Below, piece by piece: positions 728-63,915 of a DNA stretch of 64,000 bases. The stretch comes from Promethearchaeota archaeon (GTDB taxonomy: Archaea > Asgardarchaeota > Lokiarchaeia > Sigyniarchaeales > SOKP01). The stretch spans positions 68,046 to 132,045 of the forward strand of contig JAHLWP010000009.1 in the NCBI GenBank assembly GCA_019057865.1, given 5' to 3'. Numbering within the stretch: position 1 is the stretch's first letter; every line of letters starts with the position of its first letter. Under the pieces are notes generated by a model, which was given only the letters and a program-made list of their open reading frames with translations, did not search any database and was not told the origin of the DNA. The translations under genes and the position numbers were made by a program.

Positions 728-1195
728 TTATTTAATTTCAAGAAATAATTTATGCATATAATCCTTAAAACCATGCTTTAAATAAAATGAATACGCTTCT
801 TGATTCTCTTTTACTACATTCAACTCAACTCGTAATAATCCTCGAGAATTAAACCAGTCAAAAGCTCTTTCCAATAATATACTTCCTATTCCCATTCTCC
901 TATAAGAGGAAGTGACCATTATAACATCAATTGAGCCATACTTTTCCTGTAAATATATAGGAGGATAATAACATAATTTTGCTACAATAAAACCTATTAA
1001 TTTCTTATCTTCTAACGCTCCAAAGATTGTTGTATCTCCTGATTTCATTAACTCTTTTATATATGATTCATAATTTAGATGCGCATCCTCTCTTCTAATA
1101 AAGAATGGATCCAAATTTGCTTGAAAATCAGAAAGTTCCTTCCATAGTTCTAGAATTTCAGGGATATATGATTCATCTATTTCGATTATATTAAT
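728..1195 (-). CDS. GNAT family N-acetyltransferase
   Basis: Acetyl-CoA motif YRRMGIGSILL and N..AYSFYLKHGF. The frame stays open 27 codons upstream of the TTG at 1114, up to ATT at 1195 (NIIEIDESYIPEILELWKEL, a typical GNAT N-terminus). Confidence 0.85.
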   Translation of the reverse strand: MNIIEIDESYIPEILELWKELSDFQANLDPFFIRREDAHLNYESYIKELMKSGDTTIFGALEDKKLIGFIVAKLCYYPPIYLQEKYGSIDVIMVTSSYRRMGIGSILLERAFDWFNSRGLLRVELNVVKENQEAYSFYLKHGFKDYMHKLFLEIK

Positions 1196-1311
1196 TTAAA
1201 TCAACTCTGATTTTAAGGTTAATAATGATATTTTATATAATTGTTGCATTAATTTTTAATTAATTATCAATTCTCTTGAAAGGTTTTAAATCTACTTAAT
1301 AATTTCCTTAA

Positions 1312-1869
1312 ATGAGGCCATACATGGCAGATTTAAACGATCTCACAGTGTATTACTTAGAAAAATTAGCAAAAGAATGTAATATTTCATTAAAGAAAAG
1401 TAGCACTAAAACAGAAAAGATAAAAAAGATAAAAAAAGCTAATATTTCGAAAGAACACCTTGAAAAACTTGTAATTAAATTCTTAGTTGAAAAGGAAGAA
1501 TCAAAGAAAATAAATAGAAGTTCCAAAAGAGAATTAGAAACACGTATTACCAAACTTGAAGAACAAGTTAAATTATTAGCATCTACATTAAGTGAACTTA
1601 AACAAAGTAGAAAAAAGGGAGGAACACGTGAATTAATAGAAAAAGTGAGTAATTTAGATGACGTAAAAAGAGTAATAATTTCAATGATGGTGCCTGGAGA
1701 AGCTTTAACTATAGATGCACTTATTGGCATTAAAGAAATACAACAATATCCATTAAGCATGATAACTCAAGCTATCATTGAATTAATCAAAGAAGAAACT
1801 TTAGTTGGTGCTGAGGGTAATTCTATTCAAAAAATAGGTGGAAAAATTGGAATATTAATTCGTAAATAA
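1312..1869 (+). CDS. Hypothetical protein: basic helical N-terminus, coiled coil, possible winged-helix C-terminus
   Basis: 185-aa ORF with a heptad segment ELETRITKLEEQVKLLASTLSEL. No family recognised; the start may be ATG 1324. Confidence 0.6.
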   Translation: MRPYMADLNDLTVYYLEKLAKECNISLKKSSTKTEKIKKIKKANISKEHLEKLVIKFLVEKEESKKINRSSKRELETRITKLEEQVKLLASTLSELKQSRKKGGTRELIEKVSNLDDVKRVIISMMVPGEALTIDALIGIKEIQQYPLSMITQAIIELIKEETLVGAEGNSIQKIGGKIGILIRK

Positions 1870-1973
1870 GATCTTCTTAGACCTTATAGTAGATTTCAAT
1901 GCAATTTTTGCATCTTATTTTATATAAGCTAAATATATTTCTATGTTAGTTATTGTAATTTAAATGGTAAAAA

Positions 1974-2780
1974 ATGAATTTAACTGAAGAGCAAATTAAG
2001 AGATATTCTCGTCAAATCGTCCTAAAAGAAGTTGGGGGTATAGGTCAAAGGAAATTATTAAAGTCAAAAATCTCTTTAGTTGGTCTAGGAGCTCTTGGAT
2101 CCCCAGTTGCATATTATTTAGCTGCTGCGGGAATTGGCAATCTAAAGATTATTGACTATGATACGGTTGAACTATCTAATCTCCATAGACAGATTCTTCA
2201 CTTTTCAAAGGATCTTAATAGAAAAAAAACTGAGAGCGCCATTGAAAAATTAAATTTGTTAAATCCTGATTGCAAGGTTGAAATCATTAATGAAAGAATC
2301 ACAGCCGATAATGCTAAGGAAATTCTTAAAGGCTCAGATTTTGTAATAGAAGGTTCTGATAATTTTGCAACTAAAATACTAGTTAATGATACATGTATGT
2401 ATTTAAAGATACCATTTACAATAGCGGGAGTTTTACGATTTCATGGTCAAATAATGACTGTCGTTCCAAAAGAAAAAACTGCGTGTTATAGATGCGTTTT
2501 TGGGGATATCTTTGATGGTCCCACTGGAATGTCTTGTTCTGAAGCTGGTGTAATAGGATTTGTTCCGGGAATATTAGGCTGTTTAGAGGCAAATGATGCA
2601 TTAAAATATATTTTAGGTATTGGAGAATTAATAACAAATAAAATTTTATATGTTGACCTTTTAAGAAACGCCTTTAATTTTATAGATATTCATAGAGATA
2701 AGAAATGTATTGCTTGTGGAGAAAAAGCTAAAGATCTAATTGAAATTATGCAATATGGGGGCGATAATGTGTGTCAATAA
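1974..2780 (+). CDS. moeB: MoeB/ThiF/UbaA E1-like adenylyltransferase
   Basis: RYSRQIVL, GLGALGS, DYDTVELSNLHRQ, CYRC...CIAC zinc ligands, catalytic SCSEAG. Confidence 0.95.
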   Translation: MNLTEEQIKRYSRQIVLKEVGGIGQRKLLKSKISLVGLGALGSPVAYYLAAAGIGNLKIIDYDTVELSNLHRQILHFSKDLNRKKTESAIEKLNLLNPDCKVEIINERITADNAKEILKGSDFVIEGSDNFATKILVNDTCMYLKIPFTIAGVLRFHGQIMTVVPKEKTACYRCVFGDIFDGPTGMSCSEAGVIGFVPGILGCLEANDALKYILGIGELITNKILYVDLLRNAFNFIDIHRDKKCIACGEKAKDLIEIMQYGGDNVCQ

Positions 2781-3040
2781 ATGAAATAGAAAAAACGGAA
2801 AAAGATATTGTAAAGAATTTAGATATAAGGGGAAGAGTATGTCCTATGACTTTTGTTTATACTAAGCTAGCTCTTGAAGAACTTGATAAGGGCAATATTT
2901 TAGAAGTTCTTTTAGATTTTGCTCCTGCAATTAAGAATGTACCCGAAAATTGTGAGCGACAAAGTTTAGCAGAATTACTAGAAATAAAAGAGATAGGTTC
3001 AGATAACAAATACTGGTGTTTAAAACTTAAGAAACTTTAA
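2771..3040 (+). CDS. tusA: TusA/SirA sulfur carrier
   Basis: LDIRGRVCPMTFV motif; overlaps the moeB end. Confidence 0.92.
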   Translation: MSINEIEKTEKDIVKNLDIRGRVCPMTFVYTKLALEELDKGNILEVLLDFAPAIKNVPENCERQSLAELLEIKEIGSDNKYWCLKLKKL

Positions 3041-3046
3041 ATTATC

Positions 3047-4078
3047 ATGCAAGAATTAATAAAACTCCATAAAAAAAGTAAACTTTTAGGATTAGGATTA
3101 ATTTCAGGAGGATTGGATAGTTTAATTGCTTCTCTAATATTAAAACTACAAGACATTGAAGTTGTAGGTCTAAATTTTAAATCCCCATTTTGTATTTGCG
3201 ATAAAGCTTTAAAAAATTCAGAATGCGGATTAAACCTCTACTTTGAAAAGTTAGGGATTAATCTCTTCTTTATTCAGAAAGGAGATGACTATTTAGATAT
3301 AATAAGTAATCCTAAATATGGATTTGGAAAAAATTTAAATCCTTGCATTGACTGTAGGATTTACATTCTTAAAAAGGCAAAAGAATTTGCAGAAAGAATT
3401 AACGCAGATTTTATTTTTACTGGAGAAGTATTAAACCAAAGACCAAAATCTCAAAATCTAAAAGCTTTAAAAATAATAGATAAGGAATCTACTCTTGAAG
3501 GAAGTTTGCTTAGACCTTTATCTGCTTTATTATTAAACCCTACAATAATGGAGAAAAAGGGACTAATAGATAGATCTAAATTATTGGGAATAAAAGGTAG
3601 GAGTAGAAAGATTCAACTTGAATTGGCTAAAAAACATGGTTTATTAAAAGAATACTTTGCGTGTGGAGGTTGTTTATTAACGGACACACGATTTTCTAAT
3701 AGGATGAGAGATTATCTTAAATTTAATAAAAATCCTACAATGAATGATATAAATATCCTTAAATATGGGCGTCATTTTCGATTTAATAATTCAAAAATTA
3801 TTGTAGGTAGAAATGAATTCGAAAATAACATGTTAATTCAAATAAAAAATGCTAATAATTTAATAATGGAAGCTAAAGATGTATCTGGACCTGTTACTAT
3901 CATTCAAGAAAAATTTGATGAAAATATTATTAATTTTGCAGCTAAACTGACTTTAAGATATTCAGATGCTGAAAAACCTTATGGACAAATAATTTATGGA
4001 AATAATCCAAAAGAATTAGATAAAATGATAATAGTGAAAAAGATAAGCGATGAGTATCTTAAATCGTTCATCTTATAA
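3047..4078 (+). CDS. PP-loop tRNA thiolation enzyme (THUMP-less ThiI/MnmA-like, DUF814-like C-terminus)
   Basis: SGGLDS PP-loop, NPCIDCR, TGEVLNQRPKSQ, CGGCLLTD, GRHFR...IVGRNEFEN. Confidence 0.85.
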   Translation: MQELIKLHKKSKLLGLGLISGGLDSLIASLILKLQDIEVVGLNFKSPFCICDKALKNSECGLNLYFEKLGINLFFIQKGDDYLDIISNPKYGFGKNLNPCIDCRIYILKKAKEFAERINADFIFTGEVLNQRPKSQNLKALKIIDKESTLEGSLLRPLSALLLNPTIMEKKGLIDRSKLLGIKGRSRKIQLELAKKHGLLKEYFACGGCLLTDTRFSNRMRDYLKFNKNPTMNDINILKYGRHFRFNNSKIIVGRNEFENNMLIQIKNANNLIMEAKDVSGPVTIIQEKFDENIINFAAKLTLRYSDAEKPYGQIIYGNNPKELDKMIIVKKISDEYLKSFIL

Positions 4079-4137
4079 TTTATTTTTTATTATCTAAATC
4101 GCGAATTTTGTAAAATATTTAATAATTTATAAATTTA

Positions 4138-6335: not shown

Positions 6336-7283
6336 GTGATTTTTATTAGAAAAAATAAATTAAACATTGGACATCTATCAACTGCCTATCATACAAATTT
6401 TATTTTAATGGAAAATGATGATTTAAAAACCAATCTCAATATTGATATCAATTGGATTTTGTTTGGGACAGGCCCTGCAATGGTTCAAGCTTTTAAGAAT
6501 GAAGAATTAGATATTGGTTATATGGGATTACCTCCTGCAATCATAGGAATTGATAATGGAATTTCCATTAAATGTGTAGCAGGAGGACATGTTGAAGGAA
6601 CAATAATGATTGCTAAAAAGAAATACAGGAGTATAAATCAATTAGATCATAATATGTATAAAGTTCTTGAGCAATTTAAAGGAAAATCAATAGGAGTTCC
6701 AAGTAAAGGTTCTATACATGATGTTATAATAAATCATTATTTGAAAAAACATAATTTACTAGACAAGGTTGAAGTAAAGAATTATGCACAAGCTGAATTC
6801 ATTGCTTTGGATATGAAAAAAGGAATTATCGAAGGATGTGTTGGAACACCTGCATTAGCTGTATTTGCTACAACAATTTTAGATTCTCATATTATTATTG
6901 GACCTAAGTTTTTATGGCCAAATAATCCTAGTTATGGGATATTTTTTCATTTAAATCTCATTAAAAGTTATCCTAAGTTAATCATTATATTTCTTAAGCA
7001 TCATAAAAAAGCATCTTATTTACTCAGAATCTCACAATCATTAGCAGCAGAGAAAATTTCTAAATCTTTTGAAATGATTGACAAAAGTTATGCGGAATCT
7101 GTTTTAAAAATTTCACCAAAATATTGTATATCGCTTTCAGAAGAATATATAAATACAACAATAGAATTTGTAAAAATCCTTCATGGATTAGGTTATATTA
7201 AAAAGAACCTTACAATAGATGATATTTTCATATCTAAATATATTCAAAAAGTACACCCTGAAGAAGATCATTATTCAAATTAA
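6336..7283 (+). CDS. NitT/TauT (SsuA/NMT1-like) substrate-binding-fold protein with no signal peptide
   Basis: FGTGPAMVQAF..ELDIGYMGLPPAI, GKSIGVPSKGSIHD. The start is possibly ATT 6345. Confidence 0.8.
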   Translation: MIFIRKNKLNIGHLSTAYHTNFILMENDDLKTNLNIDINWILFGTGPAMVQAFKNEELDIGYMGLPPAIIGIDNGISIKCVAGGHVEGTIMIAKKKYRSINQLDHNMYKVLEQFKGKSIGVPSKGSIHDVIINHYLKKHNLLDKVEVKNYAQAEFIALDMKKGIIEGCVGTPALAVFATTILDSHIIIGPKFLWPNNPSYGIFFHLNLIKSYPKLIIIFLKHHKKASYLLRISQSLAAEKISKSFEMIDKSYAESVLKISPKYCISLSEEYINTTIEFVKILHGLGYIKKNLTIDDIFISKYIQKVHPEEDHYSN

Positions 7284-10824: not shown

Positions 10825-10901
10825 GTTAAATCAAAATCATTTAAAATTTAAGAATATTTATCATAAATTAATTAGAAAATAACTGAAAGTGGAGATTTAT
10901 T

Positions 10902-12119
10902 ATATCTATTTTATTTAAACCAACGAAAATTGGACAAATGGAAGTTAATAATAAATTTGTGCGGTCAGCCACAATAGAAAATCTAGCAAAAGAAGATGGC
11001 GAGGTAACTGAAAAACTTATAAAACTTCATAGTACACTAGCAAAGGGAGAAATCGGATTAATCATTCCAGGATACATGTATATTCACCCTTTAGGTCAGG
11101 CATATAAATATCAAACAGGAATATATAAGGACGATTTGATTCCTGGCCTAAAAAAGATTGTTGATGCCATACATAAAGAACAAGGGAAGGTAGCATTTCA
11201 GCTAGTACATGCTGGTTTGCAAACATTTAATAGATTAGTAGGAACAACTCCAGTCGGACCCTCTGGAGATATAATAAATCCTGTTTCAATGGATTATTCA
11301 AGAGAAATGACTGAAGAAGATATTCAAGAATCTATAGAAGCTTTTGTCCAAGCTGCAAAACGTGTAGTTGAAACTGGTGCAGATGCAATCCAATTACATT
11401 CTGCTCATGGATATTTAATCAATCAATTTCTATCTCCTTTTTATAATCGCAGGCAAGATGATTGGGGTGGTTCTGATGAAAAACAATTTCGATACTTGAA
11501 AGAGATTATAACTAAAACCAAAAAAGTATTACCGGCAAATATGCCTCTTTTAATAAAATTAAATACCAATGATTATACTCCAACTGAAGGTATAACTCCA
11601 CTATTAGCAGCAAAATATTCTGAGTGGTTAGTAAAACTAGGAATTGACGCTATTGAAATAAGCTGTGGTTCAGCAGTTTACGCTATATTTAACATGTGCC
11701 GGGGAGAGGTTCCCGTGCAAGAAATTGTACAAGCTGTTCCAGATTATATGAAAACACTGACAGAACAGATATATCAATATATGGTTGGAAAATATGATTT
11801 TAAGGAAGGATATAATCTTGAAGCGGCAAAAGCGATTAAACCTGTTATGGGAGATATACCATTAATCCTTGTAGGTGGTTTAAGAAATAAAGCCTTAATG
11901 GAAGAAATAATTGGAAAAAAGTATGTTGATTTAATATCCATGGCACGTCCCTTTATCAGGGAGCCTTTACTTGTAAAAAATTTTAAGGAAGGGAAGCAAG
12001 ATAAGGCGGCATGTATTTCTTGTAATCGATGTCTTGCTGCTATACCAAACAATTTTCCAATTCGATGTTACGTAAATAAATTTCCAGAAAAAAAGAAACC
12101 TACTACTTATTTTCCATAA
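10902..12119 (+). CDS. NADH:flavin oxidoreductase (Old Yellow Enzyme family)
   Basis: QLVHAG, QLHSAHGYLINQFLSP, MARPFIREP, CISCNRC. The conserved N-terminus SILFKPTKIG lies upstream of ATG 10938, implying an ATA start at 10902. Confidence 0.92.
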   Translation: MSILFKPTKIGQMEVNNKFVRSATIENLAKEDGEVTEKLIKLHSTLAKGEIGLIIPGYMYIHPLGQAYKYQTGIYKDDLIPGLKKIVDAIHKEQGKVAFQLVHAGLQTFNRLVGTTPVGPSGDIINPVSMDYSREMTEEDIQESIEAFVQAAKRVVETGADAIQLHSAHGYLINQFLSPFYNRRQDDWGGSDEKQFRYLKEIITKTKKVLPANMPLLIKLNTNDYTPTEGITPLLAAKYSEWLVKLGIDAIEISCGSAVYAIFNMCRGEVPVQEIVQAVPDYMKTLTEQIYQYMVGKYDFKEGYNLEAAKAIKPVMGDIPLILVGGLRNKALMEEIIGKKYVDLISMARPFIREPLLVKNFKEGKQDKAACISCNRCLAAIPNNFPIRCYVNKFPEKKKPTTYFP

Positions 12120-13050: not shown

Positions 13051-13947
13051 TTATTTATAATCATCAATATTTATCCCAAATTTTAAAAAATGTTCTTTTG
13101 TTGTCTTTAGAGCATTCTCATTATAGTCTATTAAGAATTTTTCATATAATTGAGGATTTGCTTTTAAAGATAGAGGTATTAAAACGCTTCTCATATCGTA
13201 TACATATAATTGATCCTTCTTTATCCCCCTTATGTATCTCTTTACAGCTTTATCTGGCGACATTGCACTTTTACTAATTTCATCTAAAAATGAACGATAA
13301 ATCTTCTCTATCTTATCTTCACCATAAGCATCTATTAATTTTTTAGAGTATTTTACTTTAGCATTAGAAAAGATATTTGTTCTTACGTATGAAGGAATTA
13401 CTACTGAAACTTTTATATTTTGACTATATAGTTGACCAAAAAGTGCTTCTGAGAGTCCTACAACTGCAAATTTCGAAGTAATATAGGAGGCAGGTTCTGC
13501 TGACCCAAAAACACCCCTCCCAGAAGCAACATTCACAATATGTCCCGAGTGCTTATTATACATGTGGGGCAAAAATATTTTAAGGGAATGAATAATGCTC
13601 CACAAATTTGTGTCAAGTAATCTTTTCCAATCTTCTAATTCAAGTTCTATTATATCTCCTCCGATTGCAGTCCCTGCATTATTGATTAATAAGTCAAGTT
13701 CTTTTAACTCTGAGAAAAAATCTTTGGAAATTTTTTCCCAATCACTAAATTTAGCAACATCACATTTTCCGGTATATATTTTTACTCCGATTTTATCGAT
13801 TTCCTCTTTTACTCTTTTTAAATCCTCCATATTAATATCAGAAATAAATAGGTTCATTCCTTCATTTGCTAAAGCTATAGCAAACGATCGCCCTATTCCA
13901 CTAGCAGCTCCAGTAATAAAACAATTCTTTTCTTCCAAATCTTTCAA
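13051..13947 (-). CDS. Short-chain dehydrogenase/reductase
   Basis: TGAASGIG, NNAG, YITSK. TTG 13947 aligns with the neighbour's MKD start. Confidence 0.93.
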   Translation of the reverse strand: MKDLEEKNCFITGAASGIGRSFAIALANEGMNLFISDINMEDLKRVKEEIDKIGVKIYTGKCDVAKFSDWEKISKDFFSELKELDLLINNAGTAIGGDIIELELEDWKRLLDTNLWSIIHSLKIFLPHMYNKHSGHIVNVASGRGVFGSAEPASYITSKFAVVGLSEALFGQLYSQNIKVSVVIPSYVRTNIFSNAKVKYSKKLIDAYGEDKIEKIYRSFLDEISKSAMSPDKAVKRYIRGIKKDQLYVYDMRSVLIPLSLKANPQLYEKFLIDYNENALKTTKEHFLKFGINIDDYK

Positions 13948-14163
13948 AATTTTCACTTTTGTTTTGTAAATTTTATTGGATTTTATGTGATTTAGTATGA
14001 TTAATATTTAACAATTTTTAAATATAAAATGAAAACCTAATCATATTGACAAAAAGACTTTTAAATATTTAAAATCAATTTATCTATTACTGAGTTGATT
14101 TGCAATTCATATCAATTCTAAAAATTTTCAAATTATTATTAAAAAATATCGGAGGAAATTTAC

Positions 14164-28179: not shown

Positions 28180-30519
28180 TTATCTGTTAATAAATTTTTC
28201 AGATAGATTTGATTCTATTTTATCTATTAATTTTTTTAATTCGGTAATATCAGAACTTACATCAATACCCAAATCTGGGCTTAAATTAATAGCTTTTTTA
28301 ATGTACTGAATACCCATATTGTAATCCTTTATATTAAAGTACGCGTAACCCATGAAAAACCATGCTTTGGCAAACTCTTGATCTATTTCAGTTGCTTTCC
28401 TATAATTATTAATGGCTAAATCAAATTCTTTCTTAAGTTTATATACATTCGCCATATTAAAATATGCTAATGAATAATTAGGGTCAATTTCAACGGCTTT
28501 TTTATATGATTCAATAGAACTATCCAACTCATTTTTAGCTTCATAAGCAAGTCCCATGTTATTCCAGGATTCAGCATGTTTAGGATTTAATCTAACCGCT
28601 TTACTAAAATTCTGAATCGCAGCGTCATAGCTCCTTTTATTATTATAGGCAAGACCTAAATGGTAATAAGCATCTACATAGTTTTCATCTAATTCTGTTG
28701 CTCTATTGCACGCTTCAATTGCTATATCAGGATTTTTTCTTAAATTTTGTTTAGTTTTATTAACCAATTCTGTTTTATATCTTTCTCTAATTAAATTTTT
28801 ATTCTGCATATCAGGTTCTTCCATTAACTCATTTATTTTAAGGGCTCGTTCAAAAAATGTGAAACCTTCTTCCCATTTAAATTGTTTAGCTAATTGATTT
28901 CCTCGTTCTATTAAAAGCCTAATTTCATCAGAGTGAACCTCGTCTATTAACTTCTTTATTTTACTCATTTCCTTAATTCTCCGCTTCTCATCATCAATTG
29001 AGTTAGCGTAATCTAGTCGTTTTTTAAGTTTCTCGATCTCTTTTTCTTTAAATTGCTGTGCTTCTGCTAAACCACCTTTACCTACTAGTTGTTTTATCTC
29101 TGTTTGATAAATTAGACCTTTAATCTCTCCTACCTCCTTTTCCATCTCGTCTGTGAGATACATTTTATTAGTTATATCCAAAGCTTCATTGTAAACTGTT
29201 ATAGCTTCCTCATATTCATCTTCATTCTCTAGTTTATTTCCCCTAGTTAGAACTTCTTTTACTTGGGCAGAATACACCTTATTAACTAAATTCTTTAGAT
29301 TTTCAATTTCTTCATTTTCTTCCTCTGGATAGTTCATAATTTTAGCAATACTTATTGCAGAATATAATTGACTCACAGCATCTTCATATTTTTTTTGCAT
29401 TATGTTATTTACCGAATTTTCTTTAATTAAATTAATTCCTGCTAAGCACGCACTATTGATTAGGTCACTAATTTTTTTTACTTCTTGGTCTTTTTTTATA
29501 TCTGGAATCATCGAATTTGCTTTGTCTAAAGCTTCTTTGAAAATTTTAACAGCTTCATTTATTTTAGTTATAGATTCCTCAAATTTATCTTGTTGAGTTA
29601 TTAGTTTTCCTTTTTCTACTATTGGTTTGATTTTTTCAATATAGAAAGGATTTATGATTTCCGCGATGATACTAATTTCAAGGTTTTTTAAATCAGAGTC
29701 ATACATTCTATTTGCGATGTCTAAAGCATTTTTTGATTCTGAAATTGCACTATTAATATTGTTTTGAGTCACTAATTCCCTAGTTTTATCAACAATGGGT
29801 TTAATCTTATTAGAATAAATTTGGTTAACTAAATTTTTTATATTAATAATTTCCTTATTTTTTTGCTCAGGATTGTAAAAACTATCAGTTGATCCTAAAG
29901 CCTTCTCAAATTTTTTTATGGCATCTTCACTTCTACCAGTTAGTTTCAATTGGTTTCCCTTTTCAATAATTAATTTTATTTGAGTTGAACAAGTCTTATC
30001 AATTTCAGCCTTAATTTTATCTTGTTCTTCAATTTTAGGGATACCATCATAAATCTCCTCAGCAATAATTAATGCTTTATTGAATGTTTCGATTGCATCA
30101 TCAAAATTTTTATTTTCTCTTAAATTTACAGCATCTTCTAATAGTTCTTTCAGTTTTGCCTCTTTATCTAATTGATTAATTTCTTTCACTTCAGTTTCTT
30201 TATAATCTGGGTCATCAATGTTATCAGCTACCTTTAATGCTTCCTGAAAATTTTCATAGGCTTTATCAAATTCTTTTTGAGAAACTAAGCGAATAGCTTG
30301 TTGAATATAATCATTTATTTCAACAGAATAAGTTTGATTGATTACATTTTTAATATTATTTATTTCTGTTTCTTTATCTTCAGGCTCTTTAACTTTTTCA
30401 TTAACAAAATCTATAGCTTCATGCAATTTGTCAATTGCTTTTTGATATTTATTTTTATCTTTAAATGTATTGGCTTCTTCAATCATTAAATTTAATTTTT
30501 TCAAAACAGATGCTTTCAT
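28180..30519 (-). CDS. Helical-repeat/TPR protein
   Basis: Canonical C-terminal TPRs (AYYHLGLAY, SWNNMGLAY, AWFFMGYAY) and N-terminal ~48-aa helical repeats. Confidence 0.9.
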   Translation of the reverse strand: MKASVLKKLNLMIEEANTFKDKNKYQKAIDKLHEAIDFVNEKVKEPEDKETEINNIKNVINQTYSVEINDYIQQAIRLVSQKEFDKAYENFQEALKVADNIDDPDYKETEVKEINQLDKEAKLKELLEDAVNLRENKNFDDAIETFNKALIIAEEIYDGIPKIEEQDKIKAEIDKTCSTQIKLIIEKGNQLKLTGRSEDAIKKFEKALGSTDSFYNPEQKNKEIINIKNLVNQIYSNKIKPIVDKTRELVTQNNINSAISESKNALDIANRMYDSDLKNLEISIIAEIINPFYIEKIKPIVEKGKLITQQDKFEESITKINEAVKIFKEALDKANSMIPDIKKDQEVKKISDLINSACLAGINLIKENSVNNIMQKKYEDAVSQLYSAISIAKIMNYPEEENEEIENLKNLVNKVYSAQVKEVLTRGNKLENEDEYEEAITVYNEALDITNKMYLTDEMEKEVGEIKGLIYQTEIKQLVGKGGLAEAQQFKEKEIEKLKKRLDYANSIDDEKRRIKEMSKIKKLIDEVHSDEIRLLIERGNQLAKQFKWEEGFTFFERALKINELMEEPDMQNKNLIRERYKTELVNKTKQNLRKNPDIAIEACNRATELDENYVDAYYHLGLAYNNKRSYDAAIQNFSKAVRLNPKHAESWNNMGLAYEAKNELDSSIESYKKAVEIDPNYSLAYFNMANVYKLKKEFDLAINNYRKATEIDQEFAKAWFFMGYAYFNIKDYNMGIQYIKKAINLSPDLGIDVSSDITELKKLIDKIESNLSEKFINR

Positions 30520-31216: not shown

Positions 31217-31299
31217 AAATAGATTTTTAAATAGTAAAATAATTTTGTATTATATCTAAAAAAATTAAATATTTCGATCATAAAAAAGAGGTGAATTCA

Positions 31300-31659
31300 A
31301 TGGAATCAGATCGTAAATCTATTTTAAAGGAAGGATATATGAAGATTTTTGCCCTGTCTATTCTTTTATTAATCGTTGGAATTATATTAGTAGCTATAGG
31401 TAGTATATGGTCAATAATAATTGACGAAAAAATTGATACGCCGTGGGAGAGTGAAGCCTATGGTGATACGATGATGATTTTTGCAACTTTAACAACACTT
31501 TTCCTACAATTAGGTTTTGTAATCTTTTCTTTCTCTACTTTTATGGGTGCCTTGGTTGATAAAACGCTTTCTGGAGAAGTTAGAAGAGGAATGCTTTTTG
31601 CATCAGGATTTGGAATTTTAGCTCTAAGTTTAATGACAATATCCATAATTATAATTTAA
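31300..31659 (+). CDS. Three-TM membrane protein (paralog A)
   Basis: SD GAGGTGA, 5 nt, then ATG 31300; motif QLG..IF..STF.G.L.D.TLS.EVR.GM.FAS. Confidence 0.75.
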   Translation: MESDRKSILKEGYMKIFALSILLLIVGIILVAIGSIWSIIIDEKIDTPWESEAYGDTMMIFATLTTLFLQLGFVIFSFSTFMGALVDKTLSGEVRRGMLFASGFGILALSLMTISIIII

Positions 31660-32357: not shown

Positions 32358-32395
32358 ATAATATCTTATCAATAAAAACATATCATTTAAAAAAG

Positions 32396-32758
32396 GTGAA
32401 AGCTATTTCAAAAGAAGTATTTCGTAGATTTTGGGCAGAGAAAAATTATTTAAAGATTTTTGTTGTGTCTATTATCTTATTAATTTTGGGAGTTATATTA
32501 ATGTTTGCAAGAAATATGTTGATTACTTACGCTGATCCTGATACTCCGAAGAAAGTGGAACTCTATCTTGAAACTTTGGACTCTCTTGCAACGTTCATTC
32601 AACTTTTCTTTCAATTAGGGATGATATTATTTGCCGTATCTACTTTTTTAGGAGGATTGAGAGATGACACACTTTCAGCTGAAGTTAGAAAAGGAATGAT
32701 TTTTGCCTCAAGCGTAGCAATGGTAGGTTTTGTAATAGTAATGGTTTTCATTATATAA
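32396..32758 (+). CDS. Three-TM membrane protein (paralog B)
   Basis: Same motif as the 31300 gene. The GTG 32396 sits inside the SD, so the start is probably ATT 32405. Confidence 0.75.
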   Translation: MKAISKEVFRRFWAEKNYLKIFVVSIILLILGVILMFARNMLITYADPDTPKKVELYLETLDSLATFIQLFFQLGMILFAVSTFLGGLRDDTLSAEVRKGMIFASSVAMVGFVIVMVFII

Positions 32759-39729: not shown

Positions 39730-42700
39730 TTATTTTTTGATTCTTTTTCTAACTAGCAGCATAGAAACGACACAAATTAAACCGATTATGAAGTATAGGT
39801 TGTATCCTGGAATTGTTGTCTCCTTTTTCTTTGATGGACTTTTTATTTCAAAAAAGTCACTGAAATCATTGATAAGGGAATTAGAAACGTCTGTAATTTT
39901 TATTTGATATTGTGTTGAATCATCTAAATCTGAGGGAATAGACCAGGAAAATACACCGTCGTTGCTTGTACTAGAAATAATTTCCCTTTCAAATACACCA
40001 CCCATATAGAGTTCAATCTTTACATCCGAAATAGTGCCTGTTGAGTTCCAATAGATATTATTAGAAGACCCTTTTTCCCACGAACTAGAATTCTGAGGTG
40101 TTTTAACCGTGAGAGAATCAGGTAAAGTAAATTTAATTGAAAAGTCGTTAGTTGAAGCATCTAATCCTTGATAATAATTATAATATCTTGTATCTAGTCC
40201 AAAATTTAATCCACAAGTATATTAGTCTGCCACATAGTTAATATCATCATAGTTAAAGAGGATGTCTCCATTATCATACAAAATTACCTCAAAACTGCCA
40301 ACATTAGGGCCATTATCATGATCAACGTACTCCCACGCAGCAACCCAATAGTGGTCAAATGATTTTATGTCAACAAAACTGGTATCTAGATCGTCCCAGA
40401 ATGGCGCAATCATATATGAAAATTCGAGATATGGCGAGGGAAATGAATATTCCCAATACTCATCAGGTGTTGTATCTACAAAACTAAGATATCCATTTTC
40501 GCTTACATATATAGTTGAAAAGGTTTGATTGTAAAATTGAAAATCAAAAGGTAAGGATAATTCCTCATATCCATCATTACCTACCCAGACTGATGTTCCG
40601 TCAGAAGCATCCACCCAAAAATACGGAACACCTAGGATCATTGTATAATTCATCCATATTGTTATTAGTTCAGTTGCGCTGTCATTTAATGTTATTGGGT
40701 CTCCGGATACACTTGGAGTATAGGCAGTAAAATTATGTTTACCATAATCCACGGGGGTCCATATGTAATTTATGGTCTCACTGGTTCCAACGAGAAGTGT
40801 TGAAATAGTAGTAAAATCTACAAGTGCATCATTAAGATAAAGAAATAGATCGACATCAGTCTCATCATTTAGTCCAGCATTGAAGATAGTTGCATTGACA
40901 GTATATGTAGAATAAAGCTCAGGATTGGTTGGAACTTCTAATTGAACACCTAAATCATGTTCAATAATGGGATAAGAAATATTTGCCATTCCTTCACCAG
41001 AAATTGCTTTTGCGATTAAATAATATTTACCTGTGCTTGCAACAGTATATATTATAACTTCCTGCGTTCCCAAACCAGATTGTGTGCTTGAAGCAACCAT
41101 ATCAGGTTCTCCTATAGAAGAAGGATCATTTGAGTATAAATGTAAATCGAAATCAGCTCCGTTTGGAACATCTAAAGTGAAAATATACTTTTGGCCATTA
41201 ATAAGATTAACATAACACCCTAAGCCGTGTTTATTGAATGGATTAATAGCACTGCTAGTTAACCAAGCACTTGTTGAAGAACCTAAAGTTAATTTCTGAG
41301 TATACGCTTCTATTGCAACATCCACATTAAGTCTTCCATAACCTTCGTGTCTATCCCTACCACCACGATTAAGTTCCGGTGAATATGAGCCACTATATTG
41401 TTCCCTTATTAACGGATAGGTTTCTGTAGCAGACATTAATAACAATGCTTTAACTCTTTTCGCTTCAGTAGCAGTATAATTCCAATTTTCATGGCCACCC
41501 ATAGCTTCAATTAGTAGATTTGAAGCCCCTGCAACGGCAGGTGCGGACATTGAAGTTCCTTGTGCACCTTGCATATCATTTGCATATATATCTGTAGGAT
41601 AAGCAATGGCAGGGATAGGAAAGGGGACAGGGAAGGCATCATTATCATTCGTATCTGTAGAAAACATCTGCAAATGATTAAAACTTCCTCCAGGAGCAGT
41701 AATATCAGGTTTAGAAGAACCACCTTGGCTGCTATAGTCAGTTATTTGATCATTTATATTCATTGCTGCAACTGTTATTACATTATCAGCATCTCCCGGA
41801 GAACCGATATAATTTCCTCCAGGACCACTGTTTCCTGCGGATACTACTGTAACAATTCCGTTATCGACAGCATTATTTACAGCATCAATCAAAGCGACAT
41901 CACTGGATTCACTTCCAAGACTCAAAGACATAGTAGTAATATTATAGGTTTCCTTGTTAATTATCACCCAATTTATTCCAGCTATTATATCTGAAACATC
42001 TCCTAAACCATATTGGTTCATTACCTTTACTCCAACTAGATGGGCATCAGAGGCCACTCCTTTCCATGGATCTCCACCACCAAACTGAGGTGGATCAAAA
42101 GGCCAATGAATCTCAGTCCTGAATGTTACATTAAAATCACTAACATCATAATCACCTGTATGATCTATGAGATCCATAACAAATCTAAAAGAGTACATTC
42201 CAAGTGAACTACCTGTTGCATTATATGAAAGTGTATGAGACCATGAATCGGAAGTTCCAATGTATGAGTCTACAATTGTATTTTCATAGTAGAGATAAAC
42301 CGAAAAATCAACATCATCAAGACCTGGTGTAGAATCATCAAACTCACAGAAAAGATCTATTGAACCAGGATCAGTAACATTAAATCTTGTCCAATTAGCT
42401 ATAAGTGTTTGTTCCGGAACATTATAGCCAGTATAATCAAATGGATACGCCGTTGTGGCAACAGTACGCCCATTCCCATCGTAATTGGGGCTTCCCTCTC
42501 CTGATGCAATTCCTGAACAATGAGAGCCGTGACCATTGTCATCATAAGGGGAAGTTAAACCATTAACCTCATCTCTCCACCCTACTATTTTGTAATTAAA
42601 ATCACCAGCTGAATATCCTGGACTGAAAAAATTATGAGAATCATCTATTCCAGTATCAATTATTGCAATTGAACTATATTCATCTCCATCGTATGAAAGT

Positions 42701-43335
42701 GTGTTCCAGACATAGGGCCTTAGATTCATATTTCTTCCAGCATAATACAAGTGTGCCTGATATATTCTATCCTCCTCAACTAAAAAGGGAATGCTTTTAT
42801 GCCTTAACTGATTGCAAAATTCAAATAAAGCATCATAACTAATACTCCCCGCAAAACCGTTTATAGCTGCCTTATAAGTTGATTTTATTTCTCCTCCTAA
42901 TTCTTCAAAAAGAAGCTTGTAAAAATCAAAATCTCCTCCAGGAAAAGCAACAATTATAGGTATATTGTCAATCGTGATTTTTTCTGTTTCTCGAGCTGTC
43001 ATTCCAAGGATATCATCAACTATATTATTCTTATTAATATTTCCACCATCACGTTCAATACTTTTGAATTCAGATAATTGTTTTAGCCTAACTTCAAATT
43101 TATCATCAATCCCATTTTGATTTTGATCAACTTTTGAAATTTGCTCTTTCCATTTAGTAAGTGAGTTAGAATCAAATTTCAATCTGTTTAGATTAAATTC
43201 TTGTAAATTAGATTCTCCTCCCTCTGTTCCTAGTGAATTCATTATACTTGCTGTGGTAGGATAGAAGATTAGTATGTACATTAAAATAAAGAATAAAATT
43301 GGTTTGTTTAGCTTATTTAGCTTTAAATTATACAT
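39730..43335 (-). CDS. Secreted S8 serine protease with Ig-like domains and Loki-CTERM-type anchor; interrupted by one in-frame TAA at 40222-40224
   Basis: Signal peptide and triad IIDTG/GHGSHC/GTSMS. The frame continues past the TAA (YTCGLNFG...) into the 39730-40005 ORF, which ends IPGY-TM-RKRIKK. Confidence 0.88.
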
Positions 43336-56515: not shown

Positions 56516-58246
56516 TTAAAATACGCTATCTAAATCTTCATCCGATACATTAAATACTTCATTAGTAGGTGGTAATTTCTCCTCTAAGAAAAATTCAGGT
56601 AGTCTATCATGTAATGGTGTAAATCCTGCTTTTTTATTGAAATCAAGTTCTATATCAATAATCTGCTTTCCAATCGGTGCCACATCATCAACAGTTAAAT
56701 TCGCTCCTAAGACACCATTTAAAGATTCAACAACACCTTCTAATCCTTCAGGAATATCAAGTACCGCAAAAGCTATGAAAAGACAGTAGCCTGATGCATC
56801 AATAGCTGCGGTAGCAAGTTGTAAATTACGAGAAACTTCTGCTTTATTTGGATCTCTTGGATCAAGTTGACCTCCTACTCCCAAAATCTCAGGAGCGATA
56901 GCATAACCCGCTGTGTGGTCAGCCCCCATAGGAGTAGTAGCATAAGTAACACCAATTCCCTTTATAGCTCTTGGATCATAGGCAGGTAATGACTGCCCTT
57001 TAACTGTCGGTATCCTAGTTACTCCCAATACTTTACCAGTGATTTCTGTTCCATTAGCTAATATTTTTCCAGTGGGGGTCCTTTTACGAATTTCCTCCAT
57101 TAGTTTAAGAGCGCCTTTTCCATCTCCGAAATTAATTAAGCCACCTTCCATTGCCACGGCAATAGTACATCCTGCTTCGATCGTATCCATCCCTAAATCA
57201 TTACAAGCACGATTAAGCTCACCTATTTCATCTAAGTCATAAATGCCACAATTAGGACCAAGAGCCCAAACACTTTCATATTCTAACACTCCAACTGGAT
57301 CTTTTCCGCCTGGTTTTACCCAAACTTCAGAACATTGTATTATACAGCCTGGATTACAAAAATGAGGTCGTTGACCACCTCTCTTCTTGATTTCTTCAGC
57401 CTTAGCTTCACCGGAAACTTTCTCAGATCGAGAATCTTGACCACTAGAAAAATTTCTTTGAGGTAGTCCTCCTGCTTCATTTATTATATTAACTAATACG
57501 GCTGTCCCATATGAATTGAGAGCACCCTCAGGTTTAGTAACATCATGAGTCATTAGAGCATCTCTGAGTTTCTTTATTCCTTGTTTAAACACATCTTGAT
57601 TTGCAATTTCCACTCCTGGAGCGCCATTTTCATCAACAACTATAAATTTTAATCCTTTAGATGCCATGACAGCCCCAAGTCCACCTCTTCCTGCATATCT
57701 GCTAGATAATCCTTCAGGATCATTAAAACATAATCCCGAATTAGCTCCAAGAAGTTCAGCAGCTATTCCAACACCACAAATTCCCACCTTATCTCCAAAT
57801 TCTTTAAAGAGATCCTTATAAACACCATATAAACCTTTCCCAGACCATTTATTTGCATTAATAAATTCAGCACTATCATTAGTCACTTTTAATAAGTAAT
57901 AATCATCTCCTTCATGCTTACCCTCTACAATTATTGCACCTATACGCATTCTTGCCACCATCTGAGCGAAAGGAGTTCCAGCATTAGCCTCCTTAATACC
58001 ACCAGTTAAAGGTGATTTTCCACCAACGGAAATTCTACCAGATGATGGAGCAGCTGTTCCTGTTACGATTCCAGGAGCTAAAATTAACTTATTATGGGAT
58101 CCTAGTGGCTCACAGGTTGCAGGAACTTCTTTAGCTACAATAGTTGAGGTCATACCACGTCCTCCTAAAGCTGCGTATTCTTCAGGTAAATCTTCAAATT
58201 TAGCCTCTAGATTACTCATATTTACTCTTAAAATTCTTTTTGGCAA
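56516..58246 (-). CDS. aor: Aldehyde:ferredoxin oxidoreductase family
   Basis: KSPLTGGIKE, GRGGLGAVMASK, CNPGCIIQC, EYES, PAYDPR, GADHT. SD GAGGTGA, 5 nt, then TTG 58246. Confidence 0.95.
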   Translation of the reverse strand: MPKRILRVNMSNLEAKFEDLPEEYAALGGRGMTSTIVAKEVPATCEPLGSHNKLILAPGIVTGTAAPSSGRISVGGKSPLTGGIKEANAGTPFAQMVARMRIGAIIVEGKHEGDDYYLLKVTNDSAEFINANKWSGKGLYGVYKDLFKEFGDKVGICGVGIAAELLGANSGLCFNDPEGLSSRYAGRGGLGAVMASKGLKFIVVDENGAPGVEIANQDVFKQGIKKLRDALMTHDVTKPEGALNSYGTAVLVNIINEAGGLPQRNFSSGQDSRSEKVSGEAKAEEIKKRGGQRPHFCNPGCIIQCSEVWVKPGGKDPVGVLEYESVWALGPNCGIYDLDEIGELNRACNDLGMDTIEAGCTIAVAMEGGLINFGDGKGALKLMEEIRKRTPTGKILANGTEITGKVLGVTRIPTVKGQSLPAYDPRAIKGIGVTYATTPMGADHTAGYAIAPEILGVGGQLDPRDPNKAEVSRNLQLATAAIDASGYCLFIAFAVLDIPEGLEGVVESLNGVLGANLTVDDVAPIGKQIIDIELDFNKKAGFTPLHDRLPEFFLEEKLPPTNEVFNVSDEDLDSVF

Positions 58247-58555
58247 ATTTTTCACCTCTTTATTTTTTAGGCATTATATGATTGTGATGAGTCCTTATTT
58301 ATACATTTTCAATTTGGAGCATAATCTCGATATGTATGAATAATCCAATCGACTTATGGAAAGCATAGGGATTTGAAATACTAAGTTTGCCATAGAATCA
58401 AAAAAACTTTTTAATTTTAAAGTCTTTATATCTTTTTGAATAAAATGAACAAATATAAGATGTATGAAGATGAATTTCTTTTCCTTAAAATTATCCAAAG
58501 TGGAGAGATTATTAAAATTGTATTAACAGAAACGAATTTAAAGAAGAAGTTTGAT

Positions 58556-61021: not shown

Positions 61022-61291
61022 ATGGAAAGAAGACCTAATAGACCAATCGATTATTTAAAAGATTCTATAAATCAAATAATTCTAATAAAAGTCAAGCGCA
61101 ACCGTTTATTTCGTGGGACCTTATCCGGCTTCGATGAACACCTTAATCTTTACCTTGAAGGAACCAGCCAAATTTTCGAGTATCAAGATGAGGAAGGTAA
61201 CATTAGGGAGGAGCATGAAAACTTAGGATCCATTGTTGTACGCGGAGATAATGTGATATTTGTGAATTTAGCTAATGTAGAAGGTAAATAA
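61022..61291 (+). CDS. Sm-like archaeal protein (LSm/SmAP)
   Basis: GTLSGFDEHLNLYL, IVVRGDNV. Confidence 0.95.
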   Translation: MERRPNRPIDYLKDSINQIILIKVKRNRLFRGTLSGFDEHLNLYLEGTSQIFEYQDEEGNIREEHENLGSIVVRGDNVIFVNLANVEGK

Positions 61292-61462
61292 ATAAGAGTT
61301 CCTTCGATTATTAATTGTTAGTTGTTTACAGTTCCTTCTCATTATAAGTTTAAATGAAACTTTCTGGAAATATTATAATAAATAACTATATTAGAGTTAA
61401 TTATTATTTATTAGGACATATTTAATAATTTAAATAAAATTTATACCCAAAATTTGTAGAAG

Positions 61463-63490
61463 TTGATTACTCAAAAATCTTTAGAAACACCAAAATCATT
61501 AATCGTTAATCCAAATTTGGGGCACCCAACTTTTTTAAGCGTTGATCCTAAATTAAAAACGAAAATTCTCCAAACTGAGTTATTATTTATAAGTAATATA
61601 GTAGATAAACAAGAATTTAAGAAGTTCATTGGAGACGACCTACAATTAGTCCCAATATTTGATTATAAATGGAAATTAAGAAAGGTTTTCAAGAAGAAAA
61701 AGAAAAAGAAAAGAATGAAGTTTTTTGCTAAAAAATATACATTGGATGAAAGTGTACAAGATTTTAAGTCCGACGATGTCGATTATAAATTAAAGAAATT
61801 AAAGATTAAAGCCTATAGAGGAAATTCAATTTATCCAAAGATTATAGATGCAAAAATAGTATCTACAATATCAATTAATAATATTTCTTATTTAGAAAGT
61901 TTTAGTCCTCAGGATTATTTAATAAAGTATCAAGTTTTTTCAAACTTGGAAAAATTCTATAGAGTGCGAATAGAATTTAAACTTAGCAAGGAAATTAGGA
62001 AATTTTTAAAGGAAAGGAATTTCGTTATGTTTGATTTGATTTTTTCAAAAAATCGAATAAATTATCACGCAATTGTCGTATCTAAGCAAGATTGGAAGAA
62101 TTTCACTTTTGTCCATGCAACAGATTTGCATTTAGCAGAAAGAAACGATCGAATCTATGAAATCATTAAAAAATGGACTGAATCATCTATTAAAACAAAT
62201 GTAGAGGATTTTTTAAAGCAAGCAATGAAAAAACTAAAGATCAAAAAGATAAAACAAAAGGAAGAATCATTATCAGAAATTAAAATCCCATTAAGAAAGC
62301 GCTTAATTAATTCAAATAATCAATTTAGAAAATTTATTAAATTGATGAATAGAAAGGTCCTTAACAATGAATTAGACTTTATTGTACTTACTGGAGATCT
62401 TGTAGATTATACAATTTTAAGCAGATTATCAAAAAAAATTAGAGATCTTAATGAGTTTAAATATGAAGAAAGTAATTGGCAGATCTTCAAAAATATAATA
62501 TTAAATGTGGCACCTAAAAAAAATCAAAAAGGAGTAAAAAAAAGTGAAGAATTACTTTGCCCTATCATTACTACTGTAGGTAATCATGATTATCGACCCT
62601 ATCATTATGATTTAACATGGGCAGATATGTATAAAAAAATAGGGTTAAATGCTGCAGAGGCTATTGCTTTAAATGAAATGTTCTCAGCATCCCCAATATC
62701 AGCATTAACAAAATCTCCTTTTGCTTTAAAGGGGTACTATTCAGAAATTAATCCATTTAATGATTTTTATTTTATGCTTGGGAATAATATATTTATTTTT
62801 TTAAATAGTGGAGCAGATTCATTCAAAAATGTAAGAGATTTAATAACTGGTCATCCATCAGTAACAGGTCTCTCTAGTAAGCAAATAAAATATTTAGAGA
62901 ACCTCATTAATCACAAGTTAAAGGGAAGTTCTAATAATTTCCTCTTTTTACATGGTCCGCCAATAAATACAGGAACGAAGCATTATAGTTTAAAATTATT
63001 TGGAAAAAAAGGTAGTAAAGTTCTCAAAATGAAGCTTGATGATTTTAAGGAATCTTTACTCAAAAAATTAGGAAAACCCCTCTCAAAAGCAAGAATTGAT
63101 AAATCATTTAATGTAAAATATGGATGTATCTCATCAAATTGGGAGAAACTCATTAAATTTTGTAAGGATTATTGTATAATGACTTTTTCAGGTCATACAC
63201 ATACGTTGCGAGAATTCCGATTAGAAGAACCCAAGGAAAAAACCCACGTATATGACGCACCCCCTTTTTCGTTAAGAAAAATTGAAAATCCAGCTGCGAT
63301 TTTTTATGATAATTATTCAGAAATGCATACAACATCAGAAATGATTGAAAAAAATAAACCGTATATCGTTCAAACTCCTGCTTTAGGATTAGGCGGATAT
63401 AAGAATCCTGAAACTGCAGGTGCATTTAGAGAGATTATTATTAAAAATAGTAAATTAAGCTCATTTAGAGTAAAATATATTAATCGTTAG
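61463..63490 (+). CDS. Large metallophosphoesterase (calcineurin-like)
   Basis: TDLH, TGDLVD, GNHD, LHGP, GHTH. Confidence 0.88.
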   Translation: MITQKSLETPKSLIVNPNLGHPTFLSVDPKLKTKILQTELLFISNIVDKQEFKKFIGDDLQLVPIFDYKWKLRKVFKKKKKKKRMKFFAKKYTLDESVQDFKSDDVDYKLKKLKIKAYRGNSIYPKIIDAKIVSTISINNISYLESFSPQDYLIKYQVFSNLEKFYRVRIEFKLSKEIRKFLKERNFVMFDLIFSKNRINYHAIVVSKQDWKNFTFVHATDLHLAERNDRIYEIIKKWTESSIKTNVEDFLKQAMKKLKIKKIKQKEESLSEIKIPLRKRLINSNNQFRKFIKLMNRKVLNNELDFIVLTGDLVDYTILSRLSKKIRDLNEFKYEESNWQIFKNIILNVAPKKNQKGVKKSEELLCPIITTVGNHDYRPYHYDLTWADMYKKIGLNAAEAIALNEMFSASPISALTKSPFALKGYYSEINPFNDFYFMLGNNIFIFLNSGADSFKNVRDLITGHPSVTGLSSKQIKYLENLINHKLKGSSNNFLFLHGPPINTGTKHYSLKLFGKKGSKVLKMKLDDFKESLLKKLGKPLSKARIDKSFNVKYGCISSNWEKLIKFCKDYCIMTFSGHTHTLREFRLEEPKEKTHVYDAPPFSLRKIENPAAIFYDNYSEMHTTSEMIEKNKPYIVQTPALGLGGYKNPETAGAFREIIIKNSKLSSFRVKYINR

Positions 63491-63915
63491 ATTATTTCTG
63501 GTAGAATCGCATTATTAGGACAATTTTTAAAGCAATTTAAACACTTATTGCATTCTGAAAAGTTATTTCTTCGGAAATAAATAAATTCTTTTCCATTTTT
63601 ATCTTTTTGGAGTTCAAAAAGATTTTGAAAACAAAAATCATTATTTAAACAAAACTTACAAAGCGTATATTTTTCTGAATCAATAAAGAATCCTTTTAGA
63701 CGACCTTCCTCAATGGAAATAACTTCGATAGCTCCATGTTCGCAAACATCCACGCACTTTAAACACCCCTTACATTTATCATAATCCACATAACGCATTG
63801 AATCCTTAAAAAAAATTGCCTTTTGGGGGCAGCTATACATACAACGTTCACATCTCACACATAAATTAGAATTGATACTAATTGGAAATAATTTTTCATT
63901 TTTCGTATCATTCAC
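63487..63915 (-). CDS. Polyferredoxin-like 4Fe-4S protein
   Basis: CVRCERC..CP, CKGCLKC..C, YTLCKFC (first Cys replaced by Tyr), CNKCLNC..CP. Confidence 0.88.
   Translation of the reverse strand: MNDTKNEKLFPISINSNLCVRCERCMYSCPQKAIFFKDSMRYVDYDKCKGCLKCVDVCEHGAIEVISIEEGRLKGFFIDSEKYTLCKFCLNNDFCFQNLFELQKDKNGKEFIYFRRNNFSECNKCLNCFKNCPNNAILPEII

Follow-up and report, generated by a model that had tools for sequence, protein, structure and literature searches.

Translation initiation at codons other than ATG, GTG and TTG has several described precedents. NCBI translation table 11 lists ATT, ATC, ATA and CTG as rare starts, mitochondria initiate at AUA, AUU and AUC (translation tables 2 and 5; f5C34 tRNA-Met), eukaryotic near-cognate initiation at CUG, ACG and GUG is policed by eIF1 and eIF5, and archaea check their start codons with the eukaryote-type factors aIF1, aIF1A and aIF2. 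Here we compare these systems with a Lokiarchaeon, in which several genes of a 64,000-nucleotide stretch (the window, contig C5:68046-132045 of a metagenome-derived assembly of 4.26 Mb in 87 contigs, with 29% GC and an estimated contamination of 5%) had been predicted to start at near-cognate codons placed by a Shine-Dalgarno (SD) sequence. Taking ATG, GTG and TTG as canonical and abbreviating ATT, ATA and ATC as ATH, we consider it likely, with a probability of about 0.85, that this organism and its genus regularly start translation at AUU, AUA and AUC and occasionally at CUG and ACG, alongside AUG, UUG and GUG. Our comparisons confirm the underlying observation and support its interpretation as relaxed, SD-guided start selection.

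In bacteria, infC, the gene of IF3, has AUU or AUC starts that are discriminated by IF3, while in very AT-rich bacteria ATG is almost the sole start (PMC5499595). In E. coli extracts, an mRNA with AUA in an optimised initiation region reached the translation level of its AUG counterpart (PMC5499595), which backs compensation by the SD, although in an engineered bacterial system and not as natural usage. Control of near-cognate initiation by eIF1 has been described in eukaryotes (PMC13754004). In the archaeon Haloferax volcanii, ribosome profiling found near-cognate codons at approximately 30% of putative alternative initiation sites, which the authors set aside as possible false positives (PMC7261190). 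Starts at AUU or AUA do not figure in a 2020 review of archaeal initiation that covers an Asgard isolate (PMC7531240), and the literature searched yielded no report of lineage-wide ATH starts in archaea, Lokiarchaeia or Asgard. It is the lineage-wide use of ATH starts that would be new; rare AUU, AUA and AUC starts in bacteria and mitochondria and CUG and ACG starts in eukaryotes were already known.

The Lokiarchaeal starts resemble those of bacterial infC in being SD-led, in using an ordinary initiator tRNA and in carrying a third-position mismatch, and in both systems the gene of a fidelity factor is itself weakly started (here aIF1, with ATT and no canonical alternative). However, the bacterial cases are isolated regulatory exceptions, whereas here an estimated 3-5% of genes are concerned, including those for ribosomal proteins and MCM, and the host is an archaeon with eukaryote-type factors. 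With mitochondria the Lokiarchaeon shares the set of start codons and a very AT-rich genome, but internal AUA is Met in mitochondria, whereas ATA within Lokiarchaeal genes aligns with Ile and the genome has a tRNA-Ile(UAU) gene, and mitochondrial mRNAs are read without the SD guidance that appears to position the starts here. One-mismatch codons including ACG and CUG occur in eukaryotes as well, and an eIF1 homolog is present here, yet eukaryotes use such codons mostly for minor N-terminally extended isoforms picked by scanning context, whereas in the Lokiarchaeon they would be the SD-positioned and only start of the main product. H. volcanii is likewise an archaeon with near-cognate sites, but these are alternative ones, and lineage-wide use for main open reading frames (ORFs) was not proposed in that study.

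Conserved N-termini without a canonical start codon

The 16S rRNA terminates in GGAUCACCUCCU at its 3' end, and we therefore took GGAGGUGA as the SD, counting spacing from the A of GGUGA to the start codon. Before ORFs in which ATG is the first canonical codon, SD 5-mers show a spacing peak at 6-7 nt. SDs were scored by exact k-mers, which miss one-mismatch SDs such as GAGTTGA, so that all SD-based counts are lower bounds. The relatives compared were metagenome-assembled genomes of Promethearchaeota (Loki-type Asgard) and the single-contig chromosomes CP070831.1 and CP070805.1. All nine window sites named in the original prediction read in the sequence as it had described them, and two of the genes carry conserved N-termini that no canonical codon can start:

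10902..12119, plus strand: Old Yellow Enzyme (OYE; Oxidored_FMN) gene, start at ATA 10902 (Pfam, PDB and ortholog column)
10891..10894, plus strand: weak SD GGAG, 7 nt ahead of ATA 10902 (sequence and 16S rRNA 3' end)
728..1195, minus strand: GNAT acetyltransferase gene, start at ATT 1195 (Pfam Acetyltransf_1, upstream TAA and ortholog column)
1201..1207, minus strand: SD-like GAGTTGA, one mismatch away from GAGGTGA and 5 nt ahead of ATT 1195 (sequence)

At the OYE gene, in-frame TGA 10884 is followed by AAG TGG AGA TTT ATT ATA(10902) TCT ATT TTA TTT AAA CCA, and not a single ATG, GTG or TTG lies between this stop and the first canonical codon, ATG 10938. ATA 10902 precedes the family-typical residues S-I-L-F-K-P-T-K-I-G; position 2 of Pfam Oxidored_FMN aligns nine codons 5' of ATG 10938, and residue 3 of PDB chain 3gr7, the best solved OYE homolog, aligns with the codon directly after ATA 10902. 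The aligned start codon is ATA in G012 as in the own genome, ATG in G018, G014, G016 and G001, and ATT, 6 nt behind GGTGA, in G007 and G008. The claim that this gene starts at ATA 10902 with no canonical codon available is thus borne out by orthologs from independent assemblies, which carry ATG, ATT or ATA at the aligned column.

The GNAT gene reads, on the minus strand, GAGTTGA, TTTAA and then ATT(1195) AAT ATA(1189), with an in-frame TAA abutting ATT 1195 and the first canonical codon, TTG 1114, only 27 codons on. One ortholog has AGTGA at the position of GAGTTGA, and GAGTTGA followed by 6 nt and ATT occurs at another gene, too. The syntenic contig C8 of G012 matches no more than the first ~40 kb of the window, without a GNAT ortholog, so that a genus-wide protein search was used; the aligned start column of 14 genus orthologs holds ATT in seven, ATG in four and ATA in two, with one shifted ATG. 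Since GNAT-family pairs with identical AGGTG-TTCTAA context differ solely in ATG versus ATA, the start is fixed at ATT 1195, and ATA 1189, which had been offered as the other candidate, does not hold against the ortholog column.

The same exchange of codons recurs in conserved genes across the genus. For rpS10, 80 species representatives start at ATA (50), ATT (2), ATG (16), TTG (7) or GTG (5), and a strong SD lies within 14 nt of 51 out of 52 ATH starts versus 0 out of 28 canonical starts, a correlation that we take as descriptive because the relatives are non-independent. Across 29 genomes, rpL21e has ATA 11, ATC 7, ATT 5, CTG 3 and TTG 3 times and ATG never, with the start column 6 nt behind AGGTG in 26 of the 29. 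MCM in 29 genomes starts with ATG 19 times, ACG eight times, and GTG and ATA once each, every ACG standing behind AGTGA and 6 nt; judged from this tally, ACG is a genuine start codon in the genus. The nitroreductase gene has ATG in 26 out of 29 genomes, ACG in the own genome and, in identical context, ATA in G012, while one 45%-identical paralog has GAA there. Near-cognate codons hence take the place of ATG in the aligned start column of OYE, GNAT, the family of the gene at 32405 (see below), rpS10, nitroreductase and MCM, and the two single-contig chromosomes carry the same non-canonical starts.

Between the own genome and 400 kb of the closed genome G006, we obtained 261 reciprocal best pairs with a median identity of 68%. 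In 19 genes of the own genome and 18 of G006, the alignment continues for at least 10 codons 5' of the first canonical codon; exact swaps of ATG to ATT, ATA, ATC and CTG are found, and rpS10 starts at ATA in both genomes. A strict tally of aligned starts, which requires ATG in one partner, gave few swaps, about 2-7% ATH or CTG per direction. The alignment of ortholog N-termini with a count of start codons, which the original prediction had named as a check, shows ATH recurring at the Met column and swapping with ATG.

An alpha/beta-hydrolase-like gene on contig C82 (plus strand, oriented index 28661-28690) carries ACG in the column that reads ATG in G006. This codon stands 5 nt (aligned) behind AAGGT, the next canonical codon lies 49 codons downstream, and the gene is a further ACG-start candidate. 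At window positions 1312, 21369 and 34493, the own genome and G012 differ by a swap of ATG and TTG in the start column, which indicates that start codons turn over rapidly even among canonical codons. MCM frames of 1,234-1,774 codons at L273, L274, L284, L287 and L292 (G002, G005, G032, G013 and G034), compared with ~710 codons elsewhere, suggest intein insertions in some members of the genus.

Start-codon statistics across the genome and beyond the genus

To the extent that gene starts lie upstream of the first canonical codon, the gene frame should stay open there. Comparing the stretch from the upstream stop to the first canonical codon with two control frames in 2,969 ORFs of at least 150 codons, we found open stretches of at least 30 codons in 127 genes in frame versus 32 and 45 in the control frames (p=3e-17), of at least 50 codons in 44 versus 4 and 4, and of at least 100 codons in 11 versus 0 and 0. 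In a tally anchored on SD 5-mers, codons were counted that open an ORF of at least 100 codons, have an in-frame stop before any upstream canonical codon and no canonical codon among the next five. Here ATH peaks at spacings 6 (40) and 7 (27), like ATG and TTG; at spacing 6 there are 40 ATH against 29 for the other 58 sense codons, compared with 51 against 347 at control spacings (Fisher odds ratio 9.4, p=4.7e-15). A frame control counted ATH codons 5-7 nt behind an SD 5-mer and at least 3 codons before the first canonical codon, with the frame open through to the latter, and gave 72 genes in frame versus 13 and 7 in the other two frames (p=1e-18), or 159 versus 76 and 73 with SD 4-mers; under the same SD rule there are 216 canonical first starts. 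The control codon sets AAT/TAT/TTA, AAA/TTT/GAA and CTG/ACG/AAG/AGG showed zero excess in this genome-wide frame control.

From ATH to the first canonical codon the sequence looks coding, with a per-codon coding score of +0.117 compared with +0.108 for the first 20 codons after ATG starts and -0.086 for leaders before ATG. These leaders were substituted for an earlier negative control, other codons at far spacing, which proved invalid because such codons are located inside coding extensions. In 11 out of 18 long-stretch genes a Pfam domain begins 5' of the first canonical codon, among them rpS10 (Ribosomal_S10 full-length from residue 6), the TFB Zn ribbon, an E2 ubiquitin-conjugating enzyme (UQ_con), BKACE, a BcrA-type ATPase (BcrAD_BadFG), an alpha/beta hydrolase, two ferredoxin-domain proteins, a DMSO-reductase-type enzyme and MobA (NTP_transf_3). 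Start selection had been described as relaxed and SD-guided, which for ATT, ATA and ATC is supported by the ATG-like spacing optimum, the interchange with ATG among orthologs and the pairing of weak starts with strong SDs.

Together, the SD frame test (62-85 genes), a class of GTG codons within the SD (16-18), the long-stretch excess (roughly 90) and ~40 further ORFs nearly without a canonical option, that is, ORFs of at least 100 codons that keep fewer than 80 past the first canonical start, suggest that ATH starts affect roughly 100-200 genes, or 3-5% of genes and about a quarter of the strongly SD-led ones.

The trait is restricted in its distribution. A sister family provided the negative control, an 800-kb sample of its closed genome G026 (4.36 Mb, 31% GC). 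This sample showed no excess, neither of open stretches of at least 30 codons (18 versus 15 and 17) nor of ATH behind an SD (4 versus 1 and 2), despite 48 canonical SD-led starts, whereas the tests that G026 fails were positive for G006 and for an own-genome sample of matched size. AT-richness is therefore not the source of the signal. In other sampled families, rpS10 has ATG in 10 out of 12 genomes, GTG in one and an ambiguous start in one.

Several results weigh against regular ATH initiation guided by the SD, or limit its reach. The SD of the OYE gene is no longer than the 4-mer GGAG, and its aligned spacing is sub-optimal. The genome-wide excess for ACG and CTG is small, ACG counting 3 at spacing 6 versus 0.3 on average (p=0.004, uncorrected for multiple testing), and some long open stretches stem from a likely selenocysteine TGA in an HdrA-like gene or from split or frameshifted genes. 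The case for ATH starts is overall comparative and statistical. Finally, among the 130 genes clearly devoid of a canonical start, about 36% show an SD of at least 4 bases before a near-5' ATH; as this is only about a third, either SD placement leaves part of the starts unexplained or exact k-mer scoring is too strict, and starts without a recognisable SD must draw on other routes or on imperfect SDs of the GAGTTGA kind.

GTG codons within the Shine-Dalgarno sequence

Another part of the original prediction took many of the called GTG starts for the SD itself, and genome-wide counts bear this out. In 57 ORFs the GTG of GGTGA is the first canonical codon, and 43 of them have a start-like codon exactly three codons downstream (ATG 14, TTG 7, GTG 4, ATT 8, ATA 7, ATC 1 and ACG 2), compared with ~14% start-like codons at neighbouring positions (p=2e-19). 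A GTG within GGTGA would thus usually be SD and not start. The window contains six sites at which GTGA followed by 5 nt leads to a proposed start, and the GTG of the motif is in frame at all six:

6336..7283, plus strand: NMT1-like binding-protein gene, start at GTG 6336 or ATT 6345 (ortholog columns)
13051..13947, minus strand: short-chain dehydrogenase gene, start at TTG 13947, which aligns with the ATG of G008 and G014
31300..31659, plus strand: small gene, start at ATG 31300 behind GAGGTGA 31288-31294 (family comparison)
32405..32758, plus strand: paralog of the 31300 gene, start most likely ATT 32405, with AGGTGA 32394-32399 (family column)
56516..58246, minus strand: aldehyde:ferredoxin oxidoreductase (AFOR) gene, start probably TTG 58246, with GAGGTGA 58252-58258 (genome-wide class)
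63487..63915, minus strand: ferredoxin-type (Fer4) gene, start at GTG 63915 or ACG 63906, with GGTGA 63912-63916 (ortholog columns)

For three of these genes, ortholog columns uphold the proposed start. The called GTG 13956 of the dehydrogenase sits within the SD AGTGA 13953-13957 and is read as SD because TTG 13947 aligns with ATG in both G008 and G014, the G008 ortholog having GGTGA, 6 nt and ATG. The called GTG 31291 of the small gene likewise falls inside its SD. In the 13 members of the family shared by 31300 and 32405, AGGTGA is invariant 5 nt ahead of a start column that holds ATT in seven, ATC in one and ATG in five; the two codons separating the GTG from this column vary non-conservatively, which supports ATT 32405 as the most likely start of the paralog. 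At the AFOR gene, close orthologs are identical around 58246 and do not discriminate between GTG and TTG; position 2 of the AFOR_N profile aligns at the third codon after TTG 58246, which is probably the start, as fits the genome-wide class.

At ATT 6345 and ACG 63906 the motif is as predicted, whereas the start is contested, and for these two genes the chances are evenly divided between the proposed codon and the in-frame GTG, with ATT 6345 then an internal Ile and ACG 63906 a decayed former start. GTG 6336 is kept in 16 out of 16 orthologs, with in-frame stops abutting it in four, and the ATT column holds ATT 13 times, ATC and ATA once each, GTT in G007 and ATG in none, so that the ortholog columns lean towards GTG 6336. 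For the Fer4 gene the ACG column is ATG in 12 out of 13 orthologs, yet in the closest relatives, G045 and G042, the own GTG is matched by ATG, the ACG column reading ATT in the former and ATG in the latter, which tips the balance slightly towards GTG 63915. On the other side, 43 of the 57 comparable ORFs have a start-like codon three codons on, 16 of them ATH and two ACG, neither GTG 6336 nor GTG 63915 has an upstream SD of its own, and ACG is the conserved MCM start in eight genomes.

Initiation machinery, alternative explanations and consequences

Initiation in this lineage could work as follows. The SD duplex with the 16S rRNA 3' end (GGAGGUGA core) would set the start codon in the P site, with an optimum of 5-7 nt, and the ordinary initiator Met-tRNA (CAU) would pair with two of the three bases, a single mismatch being tolerated; every non-canonical start used differs from AUG at one position. 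The first residue at ATH starts would accordingly still be Met. We infer that this tolerance may come from weak proofreading by aIF1, whose own gene would start at AUU: no canonical codon precedes the part of the single aIF1 gene that encodes the Zn-binding N-terminus, and the start of this gene is ATT in seven genus genomes and ATG in more distant families. The sister family (loci L161-L166) has ATA in two genomes of one genus and TTG in three; as this family shows no ATH excess, the weak aIF1 start predates the genome-wide relaxation. In Sulfolobus, aIF1 is cited as discriminating against non-canonical starts (cited in PMC6237735), which makes a self-limiting aIF1 loop plausible here, by analogy with infC/IF3 or eIF1. 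A more far-reaching version, which may as well be wrong as right, is that the whole genus has shifted to a state in which the SD duplex and not the codon defines the start, so that any one-mismatch relative of AUG suffices and drifts almost neutrally, coupled to the self-limiting, AUU-started aIF1. An example of such drift would be rpL21e, which cycles among AUA, AUC, AUU, CUG and UUG and never shows AUG.

Changes of the genetic code or of gene structure were considered and rejected. Recoding of AUA (or AUH) as Met does not fit, as internal ATA, ATT and ATC align with Ile in 69-77% and with Met in at most 3% (261 ortholog pairs). A motif search located an initiator tRNA gene with a CAU anticodon, A1-U72 and three G-C pairs in the anticodon stem on contig C77 (~730-870, plus strand), where it is interrupted by two introns, after position 37 and in the T arm; the CAU rules out a variant initiator anticodon. 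ARAGORN, run on the whole genome, found 13-18 tRNAs and missed the initiator, giving few tRNAs and no tRNA-Met because of multiple introns, while Rfam gave 28 hits. An upstream exon joined via a tRNA-type intron is excluded by orthologs that have ATG at the same column without an insertion. Selenocysteine as a general cause was dismissed with one case only, the HdrA-like gene on contig C23 (minus strand, oriented index 234361), whose in-frame TGA in R-I-G-V-Y-V-C-R-(TGA)-G-V-N-I-G is likely a selenocysteine codon.

Three other explanations would dispense with ATH initiation by plain mismatch tolerance. Sequencing or assembly errors, or recent loss of starts in decaying genes, could be suspected in a contaminated metagenome assembly of many contigs, where a few long open stretches are really split or frameshifted genes and the nitroreductase ACG occurs only in the own genome among 29. 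This is hardly credible, as the codons recur column for column in dozens of independent assemblies, the two single-contig chromosomes among them, are confined to one-mismatch relatives of ATG at SD spacing, and affect the essential single-copy genes rpS10, rpL21e, MCM, TFB and aIF1, whose frames are otherwise intact. It is also very improbable that only ATG, GTG and TTG are used, with the start at the next downstream canonical codon or at the GTG in GGTGA and the upstream similarity owed to a leader conserved as DNA. Short extensions of up to 10 codons relative to G006 can be conserved leaders, and the in-frame GTG is viable for 6345 and 63906, but downstream starts would remove 35 out of 98 positions of ribosomal protein S10, the TFB Zn ribbon, the first OYE beta-hairpin and about half of an E2 fold, and would reduce the nitroreductase ORF to 19 codons; moreover, the extensions show coding-type codon usage, and many ATH codons are directly preceded by in-frame stops, hence leaving no upstream GTG.

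A specialised decoding mechanism is unlikely, though less remote: instead of simple mismatch tolerance, it would involve modification of C34 in the initiator tRNA, an additional initiator tRNA or mRNA editing. f5C34 enables mitochondrial tRNA-Met to read AUA and to initiate at AUU and AUC; the trait is lineage-specific although the sister family is similar in GC, which suggests a discrete change of machinery, and multiple introns leave tRNA detection incomplete (28 Rfam hits, 18 from ARAGORN). However, the sole initiator tRNA found is canonical in sequence, and editing accounts for AUA at best, not for AUU, AUC, CUG and ACG together. We therefore favour SD-guided initiation at ATH codons by the ordinary initiator tRNA.

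For genome annotation, such starts mean that gene finders truncate or miss the affected genes because they are limited to ATG, GTG and TTG, and we estimate that 100-200 genes per genus genome are cut short or lost, including those for aIF1, rpS10, rpL21e, TFB, MCM and an E2 ubiquitin-conjugating enzyme. Systematic N-terminal errors of this kind matter because Asgard genomes are mined for eukaryote-like proteins. The relaxed lineage beside a strict sister family of similar GC also offers a natural comparison for the determinants of initiation stringency, and weak starts with strong SDs, as in MCM and rpS10, would make compensatory evolution of initiation signals visible.

A last observation in the window concerns a gene end. 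On the minus strand at 39730-43335, a gene of 1,037 codons ends at the in-frame TAA 40222-40224, after which the frame stays open for 163 more codons; the domain-like sequence goes on in this continuation, which is 91% identical to G012, and the locus could be a split gene, a case of read-through or an error.

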